Shown here piece by piece: positions 14,385 through 18,918 of a stretch of 64,000 bases of DNA; the stretch's first letter is position 1; each line of letters starts with the position of its first letter. Source of the stretch: an uncultured Methanosarcinaceae archaeon. Its GTDB lineage: Archaea > Halobacteriota > Methanosarcinia > Methanosarcinales > Methanosarcinaceae. A program made the translations under genes and the position numbers. Where the stretch lies: contig CAWJYV010000001.1 in assembly GCA_963847185.1 (NCBI GenBank), positions 96,001 through 160,000 of the forward strand, read 5' to 3'. The notes under the pieces were generated by a model. The model did not search any database and was not told the origin of the DNA. It worked only from the letters and a program-made list of their open reading frames with translations.

Positions 14385-15674
14385 TTATTGGCTAGAGCGT
14401 AATCCGTTAATGATTTCTTCTAGAAGGAGGAGGGCACCCGAAACTCCCAGATATGTCTTAGGGAGAAAGTGGATGTATCCCTCTTCAGGAATGGTTATTT
14501 CAATGCCTGTTTTGCAACATTCCTTTGCTTTTAAAAGTTGCAGAGTAGGACCATCTGCAAAGGCAATGTCCACCGATTCAAGGGTAAGATCTTTATCCCA
14601 TGCTTCAAAAAAACCATTTTCTTCTAGAAATATTCTGAGATTTTCTGCTGCTTTAGGATCGCTTCCAGGAAGTAGTTTTACTGCAAGAGGAGCCATTCCC
14701 AAGTAAGAATAAAGCCAGTGTATAAGGGAATAGGCAAGGGAACTTTCAGCCCTGACTGAAAAACTGGCTCCTTTGGGAAGCCCTGAGAAAGAATGGAAAC
14801 GCGAAATCTGTTGATAACTTACCTTTCTGGCTTTATGGACTTCTGCGAGGGCAGGTGCAGGGTTGATATCCAGAACAGCTGCAACTTCCCTCAGCAGGCT
14901 TTCAATCGCATCAAACCCAAGGGGAGCCCCAAAAGGAGAAAACACAGCTGGGATCCCAAAATGTTCTTTATACCATTCTGCAATCCTTCTTCCGTATTCG
15001 GGGAAAATAACGATATTACAGGCTGCTTCGCCTGACTTCCGGATTTCGTTGAGGGAAGTTCCGGCAAGGAAAACGGTTCCTACCTCCAGGTTAAGAAAAG
15101 CCAGAAGCCGCTTCATTTCTGTAACTGAGCCTTCCCAGTGTTTATTGAGCAGGGAAAGCCCAATCAGATTCACTTTTTTTGAAGAGCCTATATTATGGGA
15201 GGCCTGAAGATTCAGGTGCTTGAGCAGGGTAAGGGCAGTATTTTCAAAGCCAGTTGCTGCGGGAAGGGAAAAACCTGTATTTTCTATCACAAAACAGCGG
15301 TCCTGCATCCTTACTTTTTTAATTACACCTTCCAGGTCGTCTCCCAAAAGGCTTGCTCCTGGGGAATTAATCACCACAAGTAAGCCTTTTTCCTTTGCTG
15401 CTATTGTTGTAAGTGCTCTCTCAAATTTTTCAAGGGAACCTTGAATGTAGTCTTCCCCATCCAAGCAGGTGCAGGGAACTCTAGGCTGCCCGACATAGAA
15501 CTCATCCTGGAATGCCAGGGGGTCATGTGAACTTTCTCTGGGAAATTGTCTGTCTGAGAGAAAACCATGGTATAACTTGCATCCTGTAGGCCCGTTCAGG
15601 AGCACAGCCGCATCTCTGATCCCTTCTACCGCCATGATAGAACCTGTAAAAGAATCAGGAGAAAAAATCAACAT
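14385..15674 (-). CDS. Nitrogenase component 1-like oxidoreductase subunit (group IV, NifK/NifN/BchB-like)
   Basis: PDSFTG...LLNGPTGC...[12 protein letters not shown]; overlaps the upstream gene. Confidence 0.85.
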
Positions 15675-18004
15675 TCATCACCACCGTCATACTTCCATCC
15701 TTCCACAGCTGGAAGCCGTAGAAGTGTACTCCAGCGTTTTGCAAGCTCAAGCCCACTAAGGAACCCCACCCGTGGGGAAAAGGGGATGGTATCGTAATGC
15801 ACTCCATCTTCAGGGACCGAAAGTGCATAATTCGAAAGGACAAAGTCTGGCTTGAAAATCTTAATATCCCTTTCTCTTTTTTCATCAGTATAGTTCCTCT
15901 CTATTGGGAAATTTTCGTGAGACTGGAGGTTGAGGTTTTTCCTCTCAAAAAAAGAGACTGGAATTCCAACTTTGATAATTTCCATTCCTAGATCTTGGAT
16001 GGTGTCCAGCACCCATCCGCTGTTCTCTGTGTAGTTCACCAAAAGTACGCGCTTACCTGAGAGATAAGGAGCATATTTTTCAATCCCTAATCTATACATC
16101 TTTTCCTGTTCCTGCAGCAGGGGTGTGAAATCTTTTCCAGGGAGCAGACGTGCTACTAGGGCTTTCACCCAGAGAGAACTTTCCTGGAAACCCACAGGAA
16201 ATGGAAGCTCAAAAAACTCAACCCCGAAACGCTCAGAAAGGTATGCTTGCATGTTTCGGGTATCTGGGTCATCATAGGCTAACAAGTTGATTTCCGCTTT
16301 TTTAAAAGAACGAAGGGAAAGAGTGTCTGTCCTTTTTAAAAACCTGCAATTGACCTTGTAACCCAACCTTTTGAGGAGCTTCTCAACAGTATGGAAGTGT
16401 TCTTCGTCCCTCAGGGAAACACTCCTTTCTCCAATAATATTGACCAGACCTTTTTCAGGCTTTACAGAAGGATCAATCAGGTCAGCAACTTTTTTGTAGC
16501 CCTCAAGCAATCCAGTCGAAAAGTCTCCTGTAATAACTCCTTCTACAGGAATGGGGATAACTCTTGCTCCGGGAAAACGGACTTTCGCTCTTGAGGTTGC
16601 CTTTTTTATGTCGTCGCCTATAATCCCTGTGGGGCAGGTGTTCACCACAAAAACAGTTCGCCAGCCAGCTGAAAGGGCTTCTTCGATTTTCCTCTCAAGC
16701 TTTTCAAATCCCCCGAAAATTGCTTCCTCTTCGTTTATATCTGTGGGTAAGAGGCTAGAGATCTGCCTTTCATCGTTAGTCTGTATATTTATTCTTCCTC
16801 CCCTTAAAAATGAGCCTACAAGGGCATCGGTTATAAAATGAGTGCAGCTTCTTGGCCCGTGTAGAACGGTAGCAGCATCGTTAACCTGAAAAGTCGCAGT
16901 TACAGCCCCTGAAAAAGCGCAACCATAAAGAAGCGGTCTAGAAGTAAATACTATTGGAGATGGCGTAGACACTTTTTTGGAAGTTCCCGTGAAAATTTCT
17001 ACAGGTTGTATTTCGGGAATCACTTTACAGCTATTTTCAGAACTTGCTTCGGGTATCTTCATGTGGATTTTCGTGGAAGATCCGTTTTCTTGTCTGATAG
17101 GAACAGATTCAGCATATTGCCTTTTTTCGGATACAGAACCTATTTCAAATGACTTTATATCGGGTCGTTCACGCCTTCCAAGCACCAAGGCTTCAAGCTC
17201 AAGGTCACTTAGGGGGTTGGCAAGGTAGAGCAGGCTCCGATTCTTTTCCAGGGTTTCAACATATCTTGCTAACTCCCTGAAAACATTTGCAGGGACAGAA
17301 GAAGGGAAGGCTTCAGCCAGGGTTTTTCCGGCTTTTTCAGCCCTAGAAAATACTTCATCCCTGGGAAGGGAGGCTACTACAGGCAGCCCTACTGCCTGAG
17401 CAAAGGCATAAACTCTTTTCTCTTCAGCGAAAAGTCCGCGTCTGTTGAAGATGATGCCTGCAACTCTGGGGGCTGTGTCCTCGAAATTCTGGATTCCCCG
17501 GAGGATATTATTGGCTGCGTATAGGGCCATATATTCCCCTGAAGTCACCAGAAAAACCGCATCAGCATATTCTTTCCTGAGGGGAAGTGCAAACCCTCCA
17601 CAGACTACGTCCCCAAGAACATCATAGAGAACGACGTCGAAAGAGGAAGCTCTAAGCCCTAGGCGTTTTAAGACCTCAAAGCTACTCAGTATTCCCCTAC
17701 CTGCACATCCTATTCCGGGTTTTGGACCTCCGACTTCTATGCAGGCAATGCCTCCATAGCCTTCAAAGACCACGGCTTCAAGATGCTGCGCTTCCTGAGG
17801 ATTTTTGCGCATATAGTCCAACACTGTGGGGATATCGGCCCCTCCAAGGAGCAGACGAGTAGAATCGTGTTTTGGGTCGCAGCCGACCTGCAACACCCTT
17901 TTTTTCAAATCAGCAAGGGCAGCCGAGAGATTTGCAGCAATGGTTGACTTCCCTATGCCTCCTTTCCCATAAAGAGCAATTTGGATTATGTTTTTTTCCC
18001 CCAT
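15668..18004 (-). CDS. NifH-like Fe protein fused to a NifD/NifE-like component 1 domain
   Basis: [43 protein letters not shown]-terminal [24 protein letters not shown]. Confidence 0.92.
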
Positions 18005-18053
18005 GGTTTACTGAATTATCTAGGATGGATATTCCTGAATCATTTGCTAAATT

Positions 18054-18491
18054 TTAGTACTTTCCCATAATCTTTACAATTCCCCTGTGCATACCATGAA
18101 TGCTTAACCCATTACCGAGATACATCATTGGGCAGTATCCAGTTATACACTTAAATCCCTGTTTTTGGCAGGCTTCCACGGATTTTTCAGTATCAGTTCT
18201 CCAGTGAAGCCATACTTTTTTTATGCCTTTTCCTTTAAGAATAGGAATTAAATCGCCTGGTTCGGTATTTGTGACTCCAATAACCACATGATCTACGTCT
18301 ACGGGAATTTCAGCCAGGTCTGTAAGTGAATCTCGATCAGGTTTTTGGGAAAGGTCTACAAGATATACTTTTTTACCTCTGCTTTTGAGTTCAGAGGCTG
18401 TCCATTTCATAGCCGGCTTTGTGTGATCAGTGATTATTGCAAAAGTTTGTGCATCCCAGAACTTTTCTCTATCCATGCTAGAGGAGTCCAT
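18054..18491 (-). CDS. CoA-binding domain protein (CoA_binding_2/YccU-like)
   Basis: Rossmann-like FAII...GIKKVWLH...GYCPMMYL; probable start MDSSS at 18491. Confidence 0.7.
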   Translation of the reverse strand: MDSSSMDREKFWDAQTFAIITDHTKPAMKWTASELKSRGKKVYLVDLSQKPDRDSLTDLAEIPVDVDHVVIGVTNTEPGDLIPILKGKGIKKVWLHWRTDTEKSVEACQKQGFKCITGYCPMMYLGNGLSIHGMHRGIVKIMGKY

Positions 18492-18513
18492 ATTGAGTTC
18501 ACCTTTACTTTGA

Positions 18514-18918
18514 TCAAAGCAATTTCTGTCCTGCATTTGGACCAGGAGCACATTGAAAGACGTTGGAAATCTGAACTTCTATAAGAGTCTTTGCAGGAAG
18601 TCCGGGTTTTGCTGTATGCACAATTGACTTCATTTTTTCAAACTTTTCTCCCGATTCGATAACAATTGCTTTACCTTTTATTTGAAAGCAGCCACCTGTA
18701 TCAGGACCCCAAACGTAAATTGCAACATTAGGATTTTCTTTTAAGTTTGCTAAGGATTTACTCATGAAATTATCCACAATCCAGATTGTATCATCATCGA
18801 TAAGTTGGCAGAACCCTATAGGTACTACATTTGGAATTCCATCCTTTGAGGCTGTAGCTACAGGAAAAATCTTAACCTTTGAAAATGCAGTTTTCGTCTC
18901 TTCATCTAATTTTACCAT
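18514..18918 (-). CDS. Pyridoxamine 5'-phosphate oxidase-like FMN-binding protein
   Basis: VATASKDGIPNVVP...DNFMSKSLANLKENP...FQIKG...PGPNAG. Confidence 0.85.
   Translation of the reverse strand: MVKLDEETKTAFSKVKIFPVATASKDGIPNVVPIGFCQLIDDDTIWIVDNFMSKSLANLKENPNVAIYVWGPDTGGCFQIKGKAIVIESGEKFEKMKSIVHTAKPGLPAKTLIEVQISNVFQCAPGPNAGQKLL

Follow-up and report, generated by a model that had tools for sequence, protein, structure and literature searches.

A fusion of NifH and NifD/E-like domains with a conserved partner subunit in a Methanosarcinaceae archaeon, and the corrinoid-related gene context of its relatives

Several nitrogenase-like enzymes act on tetrapyrroles: dark-operative protochlorophyllide oxidoreductase (DPOR, BchLNB), chlorophyllide oxidoreductase (COR, BchXYZ) and CfbCD all reduce such molecules, and COR carries a single [4Fe-4S] cluster. 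CfbCD and DPOR carry only [4Fe-4S] clusters, as stated in the sections on these enzymes of a 2026 review in Chemical Reviews (PMC13474568). A further arrangement, in which NifH and a NifD/E-like protein are fused in one open reading frame (ORF), was noted by Dos Santos et al. (2012) in one sentence ("data not shown"); in the passage concerned, the sequences are attributed to Archaea, Firmicutes and Deltaproteobacteria and are removed from the phylogeny (PMC3464626). The relevant part of Borrel et al. (2014) uses a "fused nifH/nifE" as a map landmark only (PMC4153887), and the main text of the 2026 review contains neither of the words "fused" and "fusion". Here, we describe a fused gene of this kind and its partner in a stretch of 64,000 nucleotides (hereafter the window) from an uncultured Methanosarcinaceae archaeon (GenBank assembly GCA_963847185.1, contig CAWJYV010000001.1, positions 96,001 to 160,000 of the forward strand). 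A preliminary description, made from the letters of the window alone, had read four genes, encoding a PNPOx-like protein, a CoA-binding protein, the fusion and its partner, as the operon of an ATP-driven reductase with an uncharacterised substrate. The last point agrees with the literature: no publication giving the fused family a function or a substrate came up in searches on fusion, tetrapyrrole and corrinoid terms. The window gene is a member of this family, which has been noted in print and not studied, and which constitutes a widespread branch of the nitrogenase-like enzymes. From the gene neighbourhoods of its relatives, we lean slightly towards an ATP-driven reductase that acts in corrinoid acquisition or maturation.

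The fused gene lies on the minus strand at 15668..18004 of the window and encodes 778 aa with a Fer4_NifH and an Oxidored_nitro domain. It overlaps by 7 nt with the gene for a NifK/NifN/BchB-like partner subunit (14385..15674, minus strand; 429 aa, Oxidored_nitro at residues 9-425, 3.1e-41). Within the fusion, a NifH-type ATPase or Fe-protein domain (residues 1-276; 17177..18004, minus strand; Fer4_NifH at residues 8-274, 1.8e-89) is followed by a linker (residues 277-359; 16928..17176, minus strand) and by a NifD/NifE-like component-1 domain (residues 360-778 and the stop codon; 15668..16927, minus strand; Oxidored_nitro at residues 362-762, 2.8e-74). Ligand conservation was read from a family alignment of 18 sequences, which was also the basis of an AlphaFold2 (AF2) model. 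The P-loop (GKGGIGKS), the switch regions and both cluster cysteines of the NifH domain, Cys100 (CAGRG) and Cys135 (VVCGGF), are invariant in this alignment, and the best match of the domain in the Protein Data Bank (PDB) is a NifH (246 bits). Residues 1-276 and 360-768 are folded in the AF2 model of the fused protein, with high confidence over the NifH domain except in the two cluster loops. The linker varies in length and sequence across the family, its alignment columns being unconserved and rich in gaps; in the model it has a predicted local distance difference test score (pLDDT) below 35 and no secondary structure, two features from which we predict a flexible, disordered tether.

The component-1 domain retains three invariant cysteines, Cys362, Cys387 and Cys457, that align to Cys62, Cys88 and Cys154 of the Rahnella NifD reference, the P-cluster ligands of that protein. 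At the column of NifD Cys275, where the NifD and NifE references both carry cysteine, the window protein has Tyr577 and the family is variable (Y, C, H, K and others), and the stretch holding NifD His442 is missing from the domain in the alignment to the NifD reference. A further cysteine, Cys553 (VNCRF), is kept in most family members. The best PDB match of the domain is NifE (80.9 bits). At the three NifK cysteine columns the partner has Asp7 (Asp in 18/18 partners), Cys32 (Cys in 18/18) and Ser104 (mostly Ser across the family, with Cys in 0/18); Cys32 aligns with the position of Asp36 in BchB, and with a cysteine in BchZ and CfbD. The best PDB match of the partner is chain 9d9u_C (64.8 bits), which we take to be MarK, and the next is BchB (38 bits). 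The preliminary description had recognised this constellation throughout: the intact P-loop and cluster cysteines of NifH, three cluster cysteines in the fused domain with none at the FeMo-co position, and a partner with one of three cysteines and Asp at the first position.

The six cysteines of a P-cluster, three on the D side and three on the K side, are incomplete in this pair, and the FeMo-co ligands (the equivalents of Cys275 and His442) are absent. Judged from its ligands, the protein is a nitrogenase-like enzyme and not a nitrogenase (NifHDK, VnfHDGK or AnfHDGK), and cannot fix nitrogen. Three D-side cysteines with one Cys/Asp position on the partner side correspond, as a sequence pattern, to DPOR and COR. 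By analogy with DPOR, CfbCD and COR, this set of three cysteines from the D domain and one from the partner, with the FeMo-co ligands absent, leads us to predict a single [4Fe-4S] cluster shared between the subunits and no complex cofactor.

None of the NCBIfam cut-offs for NifH, NifD, NifE, CfbC, CfbD, BchL, BchN, BchB or BchX was reached. The H domain scored best with CfbC (NF033200, 321.9 against a cut-off of 402; nifH, 312 against 394) and the D domain with nifE (104.8 against 505; nifD, 82 against 654). CfbD (TIGR03282) gave 30.2 against 268.4, BchB gave 79 against 490 for the partner, and the DPOR/COR families gave 37-48 bits against cut-offs above 320.

For the phylogenies, references were taken from annotated plasmids and from the host genome, none of them a named sequence of Group IV-A, D, E, F or Group VI. 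In a 46-row IQ-TREE of D domains (LG+C20 PMSF, short search, support as SH-aLRT), 17/17 fused D domains fell on one side of a branch with support of 93, apart from NifD/E (100), a Group IV clade (93), BchN/BchY (95) and CfbD, and a 111-row FastTree agreed on the placement of the fused clade. The Group IV clade contains the MarD orthologue of Ruminiclostridium hungatei (306 bits to 9fmg_A), an organism whose methylthio-alkane reductase (MAR) is reported as functional in the passage that treats it (PMC13753814). A weaker group (89) unites the fused clade with a small unfused clade from Methanoregula and Methanocorpusculum, one Dialister sequence and NifD/E, its internal order being unsettled. 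Among the H domains, 18/19 fused sequences form one clade (97), outside which a long-branch Bathyarchaeia H domain is placed; BchL and BchX are the outgroup to all others. In our trees, the fused NifH-NifD/E-like proteins thus appear as a clade of their own, apart from NifD/E, from the Group IV clade with MarD, from BchN/BchY and from CfbD. In the window, a single ORF encodes both domains and the gene for a second component-1 protein comes next; each of the two domains falls within the fused clade. Of the preliminary assignment to group IV-type enzymes, the exclusion of N2 fixation stands on ligands and scores, whereas the group itself fits these trees only as a catch-all.

We additionally observed variants of the fused layout and neighbouring sets of genes. 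H-H-D forms of ~970-1106 aa carry two tandem NifH domains before the D domain (P0058, P0065, P0093; L034:2627-5884; L022:1089-3989), which amounts to a naturally occurring Fe-protein dimer in one chain with the catalytic subunit attached, and their two H copies are sisters inside the fused H clade. The Myxococcota H-H-D member at L034 lies inside the fused clade and has no radical SAM neighbour at its locus; Group VI, reportedly described by Méheust et al. in 2020, is said to be a NifH-like group of Elusimicrobia, Gracilibacteria and Myxococcales with neighbourhoods rich in radical SAM genes. An unfused set of H, small D (~350-380 aa) and K genes in Methanoregulaceae and Methanocorpusculum (L036, L045, L049, L052; e.g. 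L045:5122-8099) is the sister of the fused clade in the FastTree, and its K-type subunit has Cys at all three NifK columns. Another, uncharacterised group of NifH and D/K-like genes is placed on long branches of its own (L057:11579-14198, L095:11755-14294); a cobalamin riboswitch (L057:4243-4422, 126 bits) lies less than 8 kb from these genes at the first of the two loci.

We identified 2702 proteins that matched the fused protein at E <= 0.001 within a length band of 427-1362 aa, and both domains are present in all but 2 of the best 120. Source names among the matches include Methanosarcina, Methanolobus, Methanococcoides, Methanoculleus, Methanospirillum, Methanoregula, Methanomassiliicoccales and Chloroflexi, with orthologues at 75-78% identity in proteins source-named Methanosarcina barkeri and M. 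acetivorans. The fusion is patchily distributed, being present in 22/120 sampled genomes of the family, in 9/19 within the genus, and in 4/401 genomes of a Bacillota sample in which 2 candidates were scored per genome; the fused pair was also found in Clostridia, Myxococcota and Bacteroidota-type loci. A first locus scan, keyed on NifH motifs, gave 18 fused loci among 80, the remainder serving as a rough non-fused comparison set. The seed of the D-domain scan was a 5-sequence bacterial alignment, an 8-sequence alignment having no sufficiently conserved stretch.

The partner directly follows the fused gene in 32/32 fused loci (at L022 and L034 by phmmer matches only). In a metagenome set, 73/84 loci were fused and the partner follows in 61/73, most of the other 12 ending at a contig edge. 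The conserved and functional unit is the NifH-linker-NifD/E-like fusion and its NifK/N-like partner only. The survey of homologous neighbourhoods proposed in the preliminary description thus retains half of the supposed operon, the fused gene and its partner, and not the PNPOx-like and CoA-binding genes.

In relatives of the window archaeon, the pair occurs among genes for corrinoid uptake and salvage, BtuFCD-type importers included. At a Methanolobus-like locus (L113, genus g4) the order is ArsR, CbiZ, Peripla_BP_2, FecCD, ABC ATPase, fused gene, partner and CbiK, with 4 nt overlaps at three junctions on the way from FecCD via the ATPase to the fused gene; L114, L116 and L118 add CobN and ChlI/ChlD-type genes. 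Genes for FecCD and Peripla_BP_2 also stand beside the pair at 4 Methanomassiliicoccales loci, 1 Bathyarchaeia locus and 1 Myxococcota locus. With locally built hidden Markov models, FecCD was identified less than 7 kb away in 13/32 fused loci against 4/63 non-fused NifH loci, which, for related loci, is an indication and not a test. Upstream of the pair in genus g13 are two or three DUF1638 genes, a family tied genetically to the reactivation of B12-dependent methionine synthase in the pertinent section of Price et al. (10.1101/192971).

Cobalamin riboswitches accompany the pair at further loci, which are bacterial. At L028, the fused gene is preceded at a distance of 166 nt by such a riboswitch (RF00174, 54.7 bits; gathering score, 31.5), and at L020 one heads an operon of energy-coupling factor (ECF) ATPase, DUF4430, fused gene, partner and ECF S component. 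At the metagenome locus L163, the genes overlap or abut in the order riboswitch, Peripla_BP_2, FecCD, fused gene, partner, CbiA-like, Diphthami_syn_2, CobD/CbiB and aminotransferase, and L135 keeps this order up to Diphthami_syn_2, where the contig ends. Other arrangements include two divergent uptake genes headed by a riboswitch, with hemL, hemB and cobA-hemD downstream (L168), ECF and DUF4430 genes near the pair (L159), a riboswitch-led TonB receptor locus near it (L184), and three riboswitches each at L158 and L148.

If the enzyme is a reductase of this pathway, two NifH domains would form a dimer with a [4Fe-4S] cluster between them, bound by Cys100 and Cys135. The dimer would hydrolyse ATP and pass electrons to the single [4Fe-4S] cluster at the interface of D domain and partner, for which Cys362, Cys387, Cys457 and partner Cys32 would be the ligands, with the invariant Asp7 nearby. 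The interface cluster would in turn reduce a substrate in the D/partner cavity, and no FeMo-co or L-type cluster would be involved. The substrate would most likely be a corrinoid (a cobalt tetrapyrrole of the B12 type, or one of its precursors), and the role would be in corrinoid uptake, salvage or maturation under B12 scarcity. Candidate reactions are the reduction of cobalt before adenosylation, in which the cobalt of imported or new corrinoids (cobinamide, cobyrinic acid a,c-diamide) would be driven to Co(I), and a reaction in which the macrocycle or an axial ligand would be reduced or stripped. CbiZ-type salvage enzymes act on adenosylated cobinamide, the Co(II)/Co(I) couple has a very low potential, and we know of no dedicated enzyme for the low-potential step of anaerobic B12 salvage or biosynthesis in anaerobes and archaea. 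With one NifH per D domain, we would expect one NifH dimer per (HD)2K2, and in the H-H-D forms one dimer per D/partner half. The wider proposal, that fused HD and K proteins are a new functional class of ATP-driven corrinoid reductases using nitrogenase electron gating, is offered tentatively, and we consider it rather doubtful.

Several points weigh against a role in corrinoid metabolism. We found no corrinoid context in the window, nor at 8 loci of the same genus (L099-L104, L107, L109), so that function is assigned there by orthology only. Neighbour counts overstate the support because related organisms do not provide independent loci, haem and siderophores are also transported by importers of the FecCD type, and some bacterial loci have other neighbours, namely FAD oxidoreductases, or PALP with an aminotransferase. 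A riboswitch was present in 10/47 distinct scanned fused loci (near-identical loci counted once) and in 1/8 non-fused NifH control loci, a frequency that is not clearly higher; riboswitch enrichment as a statistic was set aside as indecisive, and the weight therefore rests on the four distinct loci, and only four, with an operon-like arrangement (L028, L020, L163, L135). Riboswitch control is also compatible with a B12-independent substitute enzyme. Possible expression counts in favour, with reservations: all four window genes are covered by contigs from the RNA libraries of two studies at 95-100% identity, mostly at least 99%, and these contigs span the PNPOx/CoA-binding junction (18414-18915) and the CoA-binding/fused junction (17826-18221); the fused/partner junction is uncovered, uncovered stretches carry no information, depth is low, and DNA carry-over is possible. 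Finally, the cluster type, electron path, substrate and reaction are what we infer.

The same neighbourhoods might instead serve metal harvesting, in which reduction of an imported tetrapyrrole (haem, a corrinoid or a nickel compound) would prepare it for the extraction of iron, cobalt or nickel by a CobN/ChlID-type dechelatase, a scheme that would resemble the anaerobic HmuS system of gut Bacteroidota. CobN, ChlI/ChlD-type genes and a CbiK-type chelatase adjoin the pair in Methanolobus-like genomes, and ChlID or CobN genes are present at 4 metagenome loci, of which L158 also has MotA/ExbB and DUF2149. A divergent neighbour at L168 matches NEAT weakly and below the threshold, the haem-binding HupZ is, by a weak match, the sole PDB relative of the window PNPOx-like protein, and a CobN-like protein is described as a haem dechelatase in the abstract of PMC12583661. 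We nevertheless regard metal harvesting as unlikely: CobN is present in only 4/32 fused loci, CbiZ, CbiB, DUF1638, DUF4430 and cobalamin riboswitches are specific to the use of corrinoids and not to the harvesting of iron, and the window has no such context.

Riboswitches would equally suit an enzyme that replaces a B12-dependent reaction when B12 is lacking, as MetE or NrdD do, and that is repressed through the riboswitch. The riboswitch at L028 is directly upstream of the fused gene, and a riboswitch neighbouring the pair at L148 precedes NrdD, a B12-independent isozyme. However, the pair is translationally coupled to corrinoid importer genes at L163, L135 and L113, and the operon also holds CbiB (L163) or CbiZ (L113); supply therefore fits, and not substitution. 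Methanogens for which corrinoids are indispensable carry the pair as well, and we judge such a substitute improbable.

A reductase of a small sulfur compound or another non-tetrapyrrole, like MAR or isethionate reductase, would agree with 9d9u_C, which we take to be MarK, as the best PDB match of the partner, and with the PALP and aminotransferase neighbours at L030. We hold little belief in it, as neither Cys nor His stands at the complex-cluster ligand columns, only one of three NifK cysteines is kept, the fused clade lies outside the MarD clade, and no NifB-like or sulfur-metabolism gene was found among the conserved neighbours of the loci examined. The corrinoid context of the relatives narrows the "unknown substrate" of the preliminary description and points away from the phenotype under sulfur limitation that it had proposed to look for.

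Very improbable indeed is a NifEN-like scaffold or carrier with a tethered NifH, which would handle a cluster derived from NifB on behalf of a client other than nitrogenase, such as Mtr: NifE is the best named match of the D domain (104.8 bits in NCBIfam, 80.9 bits in the PDB), the fused clade groups weakly with NifD/E (support 89) and nifB is present in the genome, but the Cys275 column, Cys in the NifD and NifE references, varies within the fused family, the distribution is patchy (22/120 genomes of the family, 9/19 in the genus), and the pair extends to Clostridia, Myxococcota and Bacteroidota-type loci, organisms that to our knowledge lack Mtr. Counted in favour of such a carrier were preprints that, in the parts relevant here, report NifB to be essential in methanogens and Mtr to bind an [Fe8S9C] cluster.

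Upstream of the pair in the window lie the genes for a PNPOx-like split-barrel protein (18514..18945, minus strand; 143 aa from the first ATG; PF01243, PNPOx_N, 9.4e-24) and a CoA_binding_2-like protein (18054..18551, minus strand; 165 aa from a GTG; PF13380, 3.4e-6, a marginal 27.9 bits against a cut-off of 22.8). The four minus-strand ORFs run head to tail over 14385-18945, and the gap between the CoA-binding and fused genes is 49 nt, bearing out the tight packing reported initially. The PNPOx and CoA-binding ORFs overlap if the latter starts at its GTG and are separated by ~22 nt if it starts at Met21 (18491), which is the likelier start. For the PNPOx ORF, translation more likely begins at the second ATG, at 18918, giving 134 aa, since the alignments with homologues do not begin before residue 5-10; the preliminary description had ended the cluster at this coordinate. 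An AT-rich, TATA-like stretch noticed by eye (tatataaata, 18991-19000 on the minus strand, ~45-55 nt upstream of the first PNPOx ATG) is a possible archaeal promoter of the four-gene cluster.

The unity of this cluster did not withstand comparison. The window CoA-binding protein had no phmmer match in 80 + 20 + 84 loci and its gene stands beside 0 other fused loci examined, while a PNPOx gene was found near the fused gene in 4/31 other loci, all of the sister genus g13, at 2.7-3.7 kb upstream with DUF1638 genes between. CoA-binding homologues are present in 86/120 genomes of the family and PNPOx-like homologues in 115/120, against 22/120 for the fusion. The four-gene cluster recurs at 99-100% identity in one genome, G098, the only one to have the extra paralogue copies of the window in common. 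A second CoA-binding copy, 58% identical to that of the window, is located elsewhere in the genome (G000:C4:90011), and the PNPOx-like protein has two further matches in its own genome. The PNPOx-like and CoA-binding genes are extra paralogues and local additions, and not parts of the conserved system; both proteins are near-universal in the family with or without the fusion. The preliminary description had named co-conservation of its accessory genes beforehand as a refuting test, and neither of the two is co-conserved. The CoA-binding protein has no relative that we found in the PDB. The sole PDB sequence relative of the PNPOx-like protein is HupZ (22.7 bits), too weak a match for a tetrapyrrole binder, an idea that was dropped. 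A second, decayed nitrogenase-like gene beside the second CoA-binding copy (G000:C4; weak PF00148, 5 stops) was likewise unconfirmed by tblastn with the window proteins.

Transposase genes are present on both sides of the cluster (DDE_5 at 11206-12561, IS240-type at 19465-19944), with further IS fragments beyond. The 8 other loci of the same genus have a bare two-gene pair among unrelated genes, and at two of them, L101 and L107, the IMS polymerase and PAS neighbours known from the window recur; the window locus is therefore the ancestral place of the fused pair, later rearranged. Horizontal transfer, as might be read from the GC content (43-46% in the operon against 31-35% in the flanks), is not claimed, because the flanks are IS-rich and intergenic and the IMS and PAS neighbours are common to L101 and L107.

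The host genome has 4.04 Mb, with Methanosarcina as its nearest named relatives. By annotation of its genes, the 64-kb window holds no other gene for nitrogen fixation, F430 or tetrapyrroles, consistent with the preliminary remark that nifENB and cfb genes are not adjacent; nifHDKEN (C8:548-556k), nifB (C8:588.9k) and cfbCD (C8:608-610k) are located elsewhere. We additionally identified a further nitrogenase-like set in this genome, at G000:C9:23830-33566 (related loci L006, L008, L009, L013, L124). In the trees, the K-like and H-like proteins of this set cluster with Methanoculleus sequences inside the Group IV clade that contains MarD, and its D-like gene lies in two overlapping frames (287 + 320 aa), as if frameshifted.

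Other features of the window were recorded in passing. Transposase genes of DDE_5, IS240-type, IS1-like and DDE_3 with HTH kinds form a dense patch at 11206-12561, 19465-20248 and 22505-25540, in which the DNA polymerase IV (IMS) gene is truncated to 230 aa, compared with 396 aa and 368 aa at the syntenic loci L101 and L107. A CHASE4-PAS histidine kinase gene is located at 47942-50107, 30 kb from the fused pair; in sister genus g13, two CHASE4-PAS-type kinases are directly downstream of the pair (L108, L110, L111; Pfam checked for L110:2838-5030). A compact cysteine-related block at 51043-55500 has four tRNA-Cys(GCA) genes within 1.8 kb, directly followed by a SepSecS/SepCysS-family gene (52830-54218) and a PLP enzyme of Cys/Met metabolism (54205-55500). 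PdxS (SOR_SNZ) is split into two frames at 55661-55978 and 55980-56567, each ORF matching half of the Pfam model, through either a frameshift or a sequencing error.

The combination of B12 riboswitches and corrinoid operons makes for a concrete, bench-testable hypothesis. If it is correct, nitrogenase-type chemistry would extend to cobalt tetrapyrroles, and the low-potential step in the anaerobic salvage or biosynthesis of B12 would be performed by a corrinoid reductase. Genetic tools exist for Methanosarcina barkeri and M. acetivorans. In its pertinent section, the 2026 review names many uncharacterised branches and few genetically tractable carriers as two obstacles in this field (PMC13474568). 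The natural tether between Fe protein and catalytic subunit moreover offers a ready test of whether turnover requires the components to come apart, a question raised for CfbCD in the passage of the same review on that enzyme; if the proposed function holds, the tether and the H-H-D variants would show that dissociation is not required.

Compared with the described systems, the window pair agrees with the fused family of Dos Santos et al. and Borrel et al. in layout (NifH and a NifD/E-like domain in one ORF, then a NifK/N-like gene), in hosts and in clade. Those reports give no ligand analysis, context or function, and the window pair differs in its two extra upstream genes and IS flanks. To NifEN and NifDK, the likeness lies in the best named matches of the D domain, the three retained NifD-side cysteines and the weak grouping in the tree; however, the Cys275 column is unconserved, the His442 stretch is missing, the partner is without two of the three NifK cysteines, and nifB, nifE and nifN are not among the neighbours in the window. 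MarHDK (Group IV-C) is likewise nitrogenase-like without fixing N2, and the best PDB match of the partner is the K-type chain of 9d9u/9fmg, whereas the fused clade is placed outside the MarD clade of R. hungatei, the P-type and L-type ligands are missing, and no MarB or NifB gene neighbours the pair. CfbCD (Group IV-B), which acts on a tetrapyrrole with [4Fe-4S] clusters only according to the section devoted to it (PMC13474568), gives the best NCBIfam match of the H domain (CfbC, 321.9 bits) and is similarly a methanogen enzyme. In contrast to CfbD, which acts with itself, the window enzyme has a distinct partner subunit and hence two different component-1 proteins; the host has a separate cfbCD, the fused family extends to bacteria, and scores are below the cut-offs. 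From the Group V enzymes COR (BchXYZ) and DPOR (BchLNB), the window enzyme differs in its position outside the BchN/BchY clade, in scores far below the cut-offs, in the fusion of the Fe protein to the catalytic subunit, in an H domain nearer to NifH/CfbC than to BchL/BchX, and in a neighbourhood without photosynthesis genes. It shares with them an ATP-driven Fe protein and a heteromeric catalytic component, three cysteines on the N/Y-type subunit, the alignment of partner Cys32 to the BchZ cysteine and to BchB Asp36, and, on our reading, the predicted cluster and a likely tetrapyrrole substrate.

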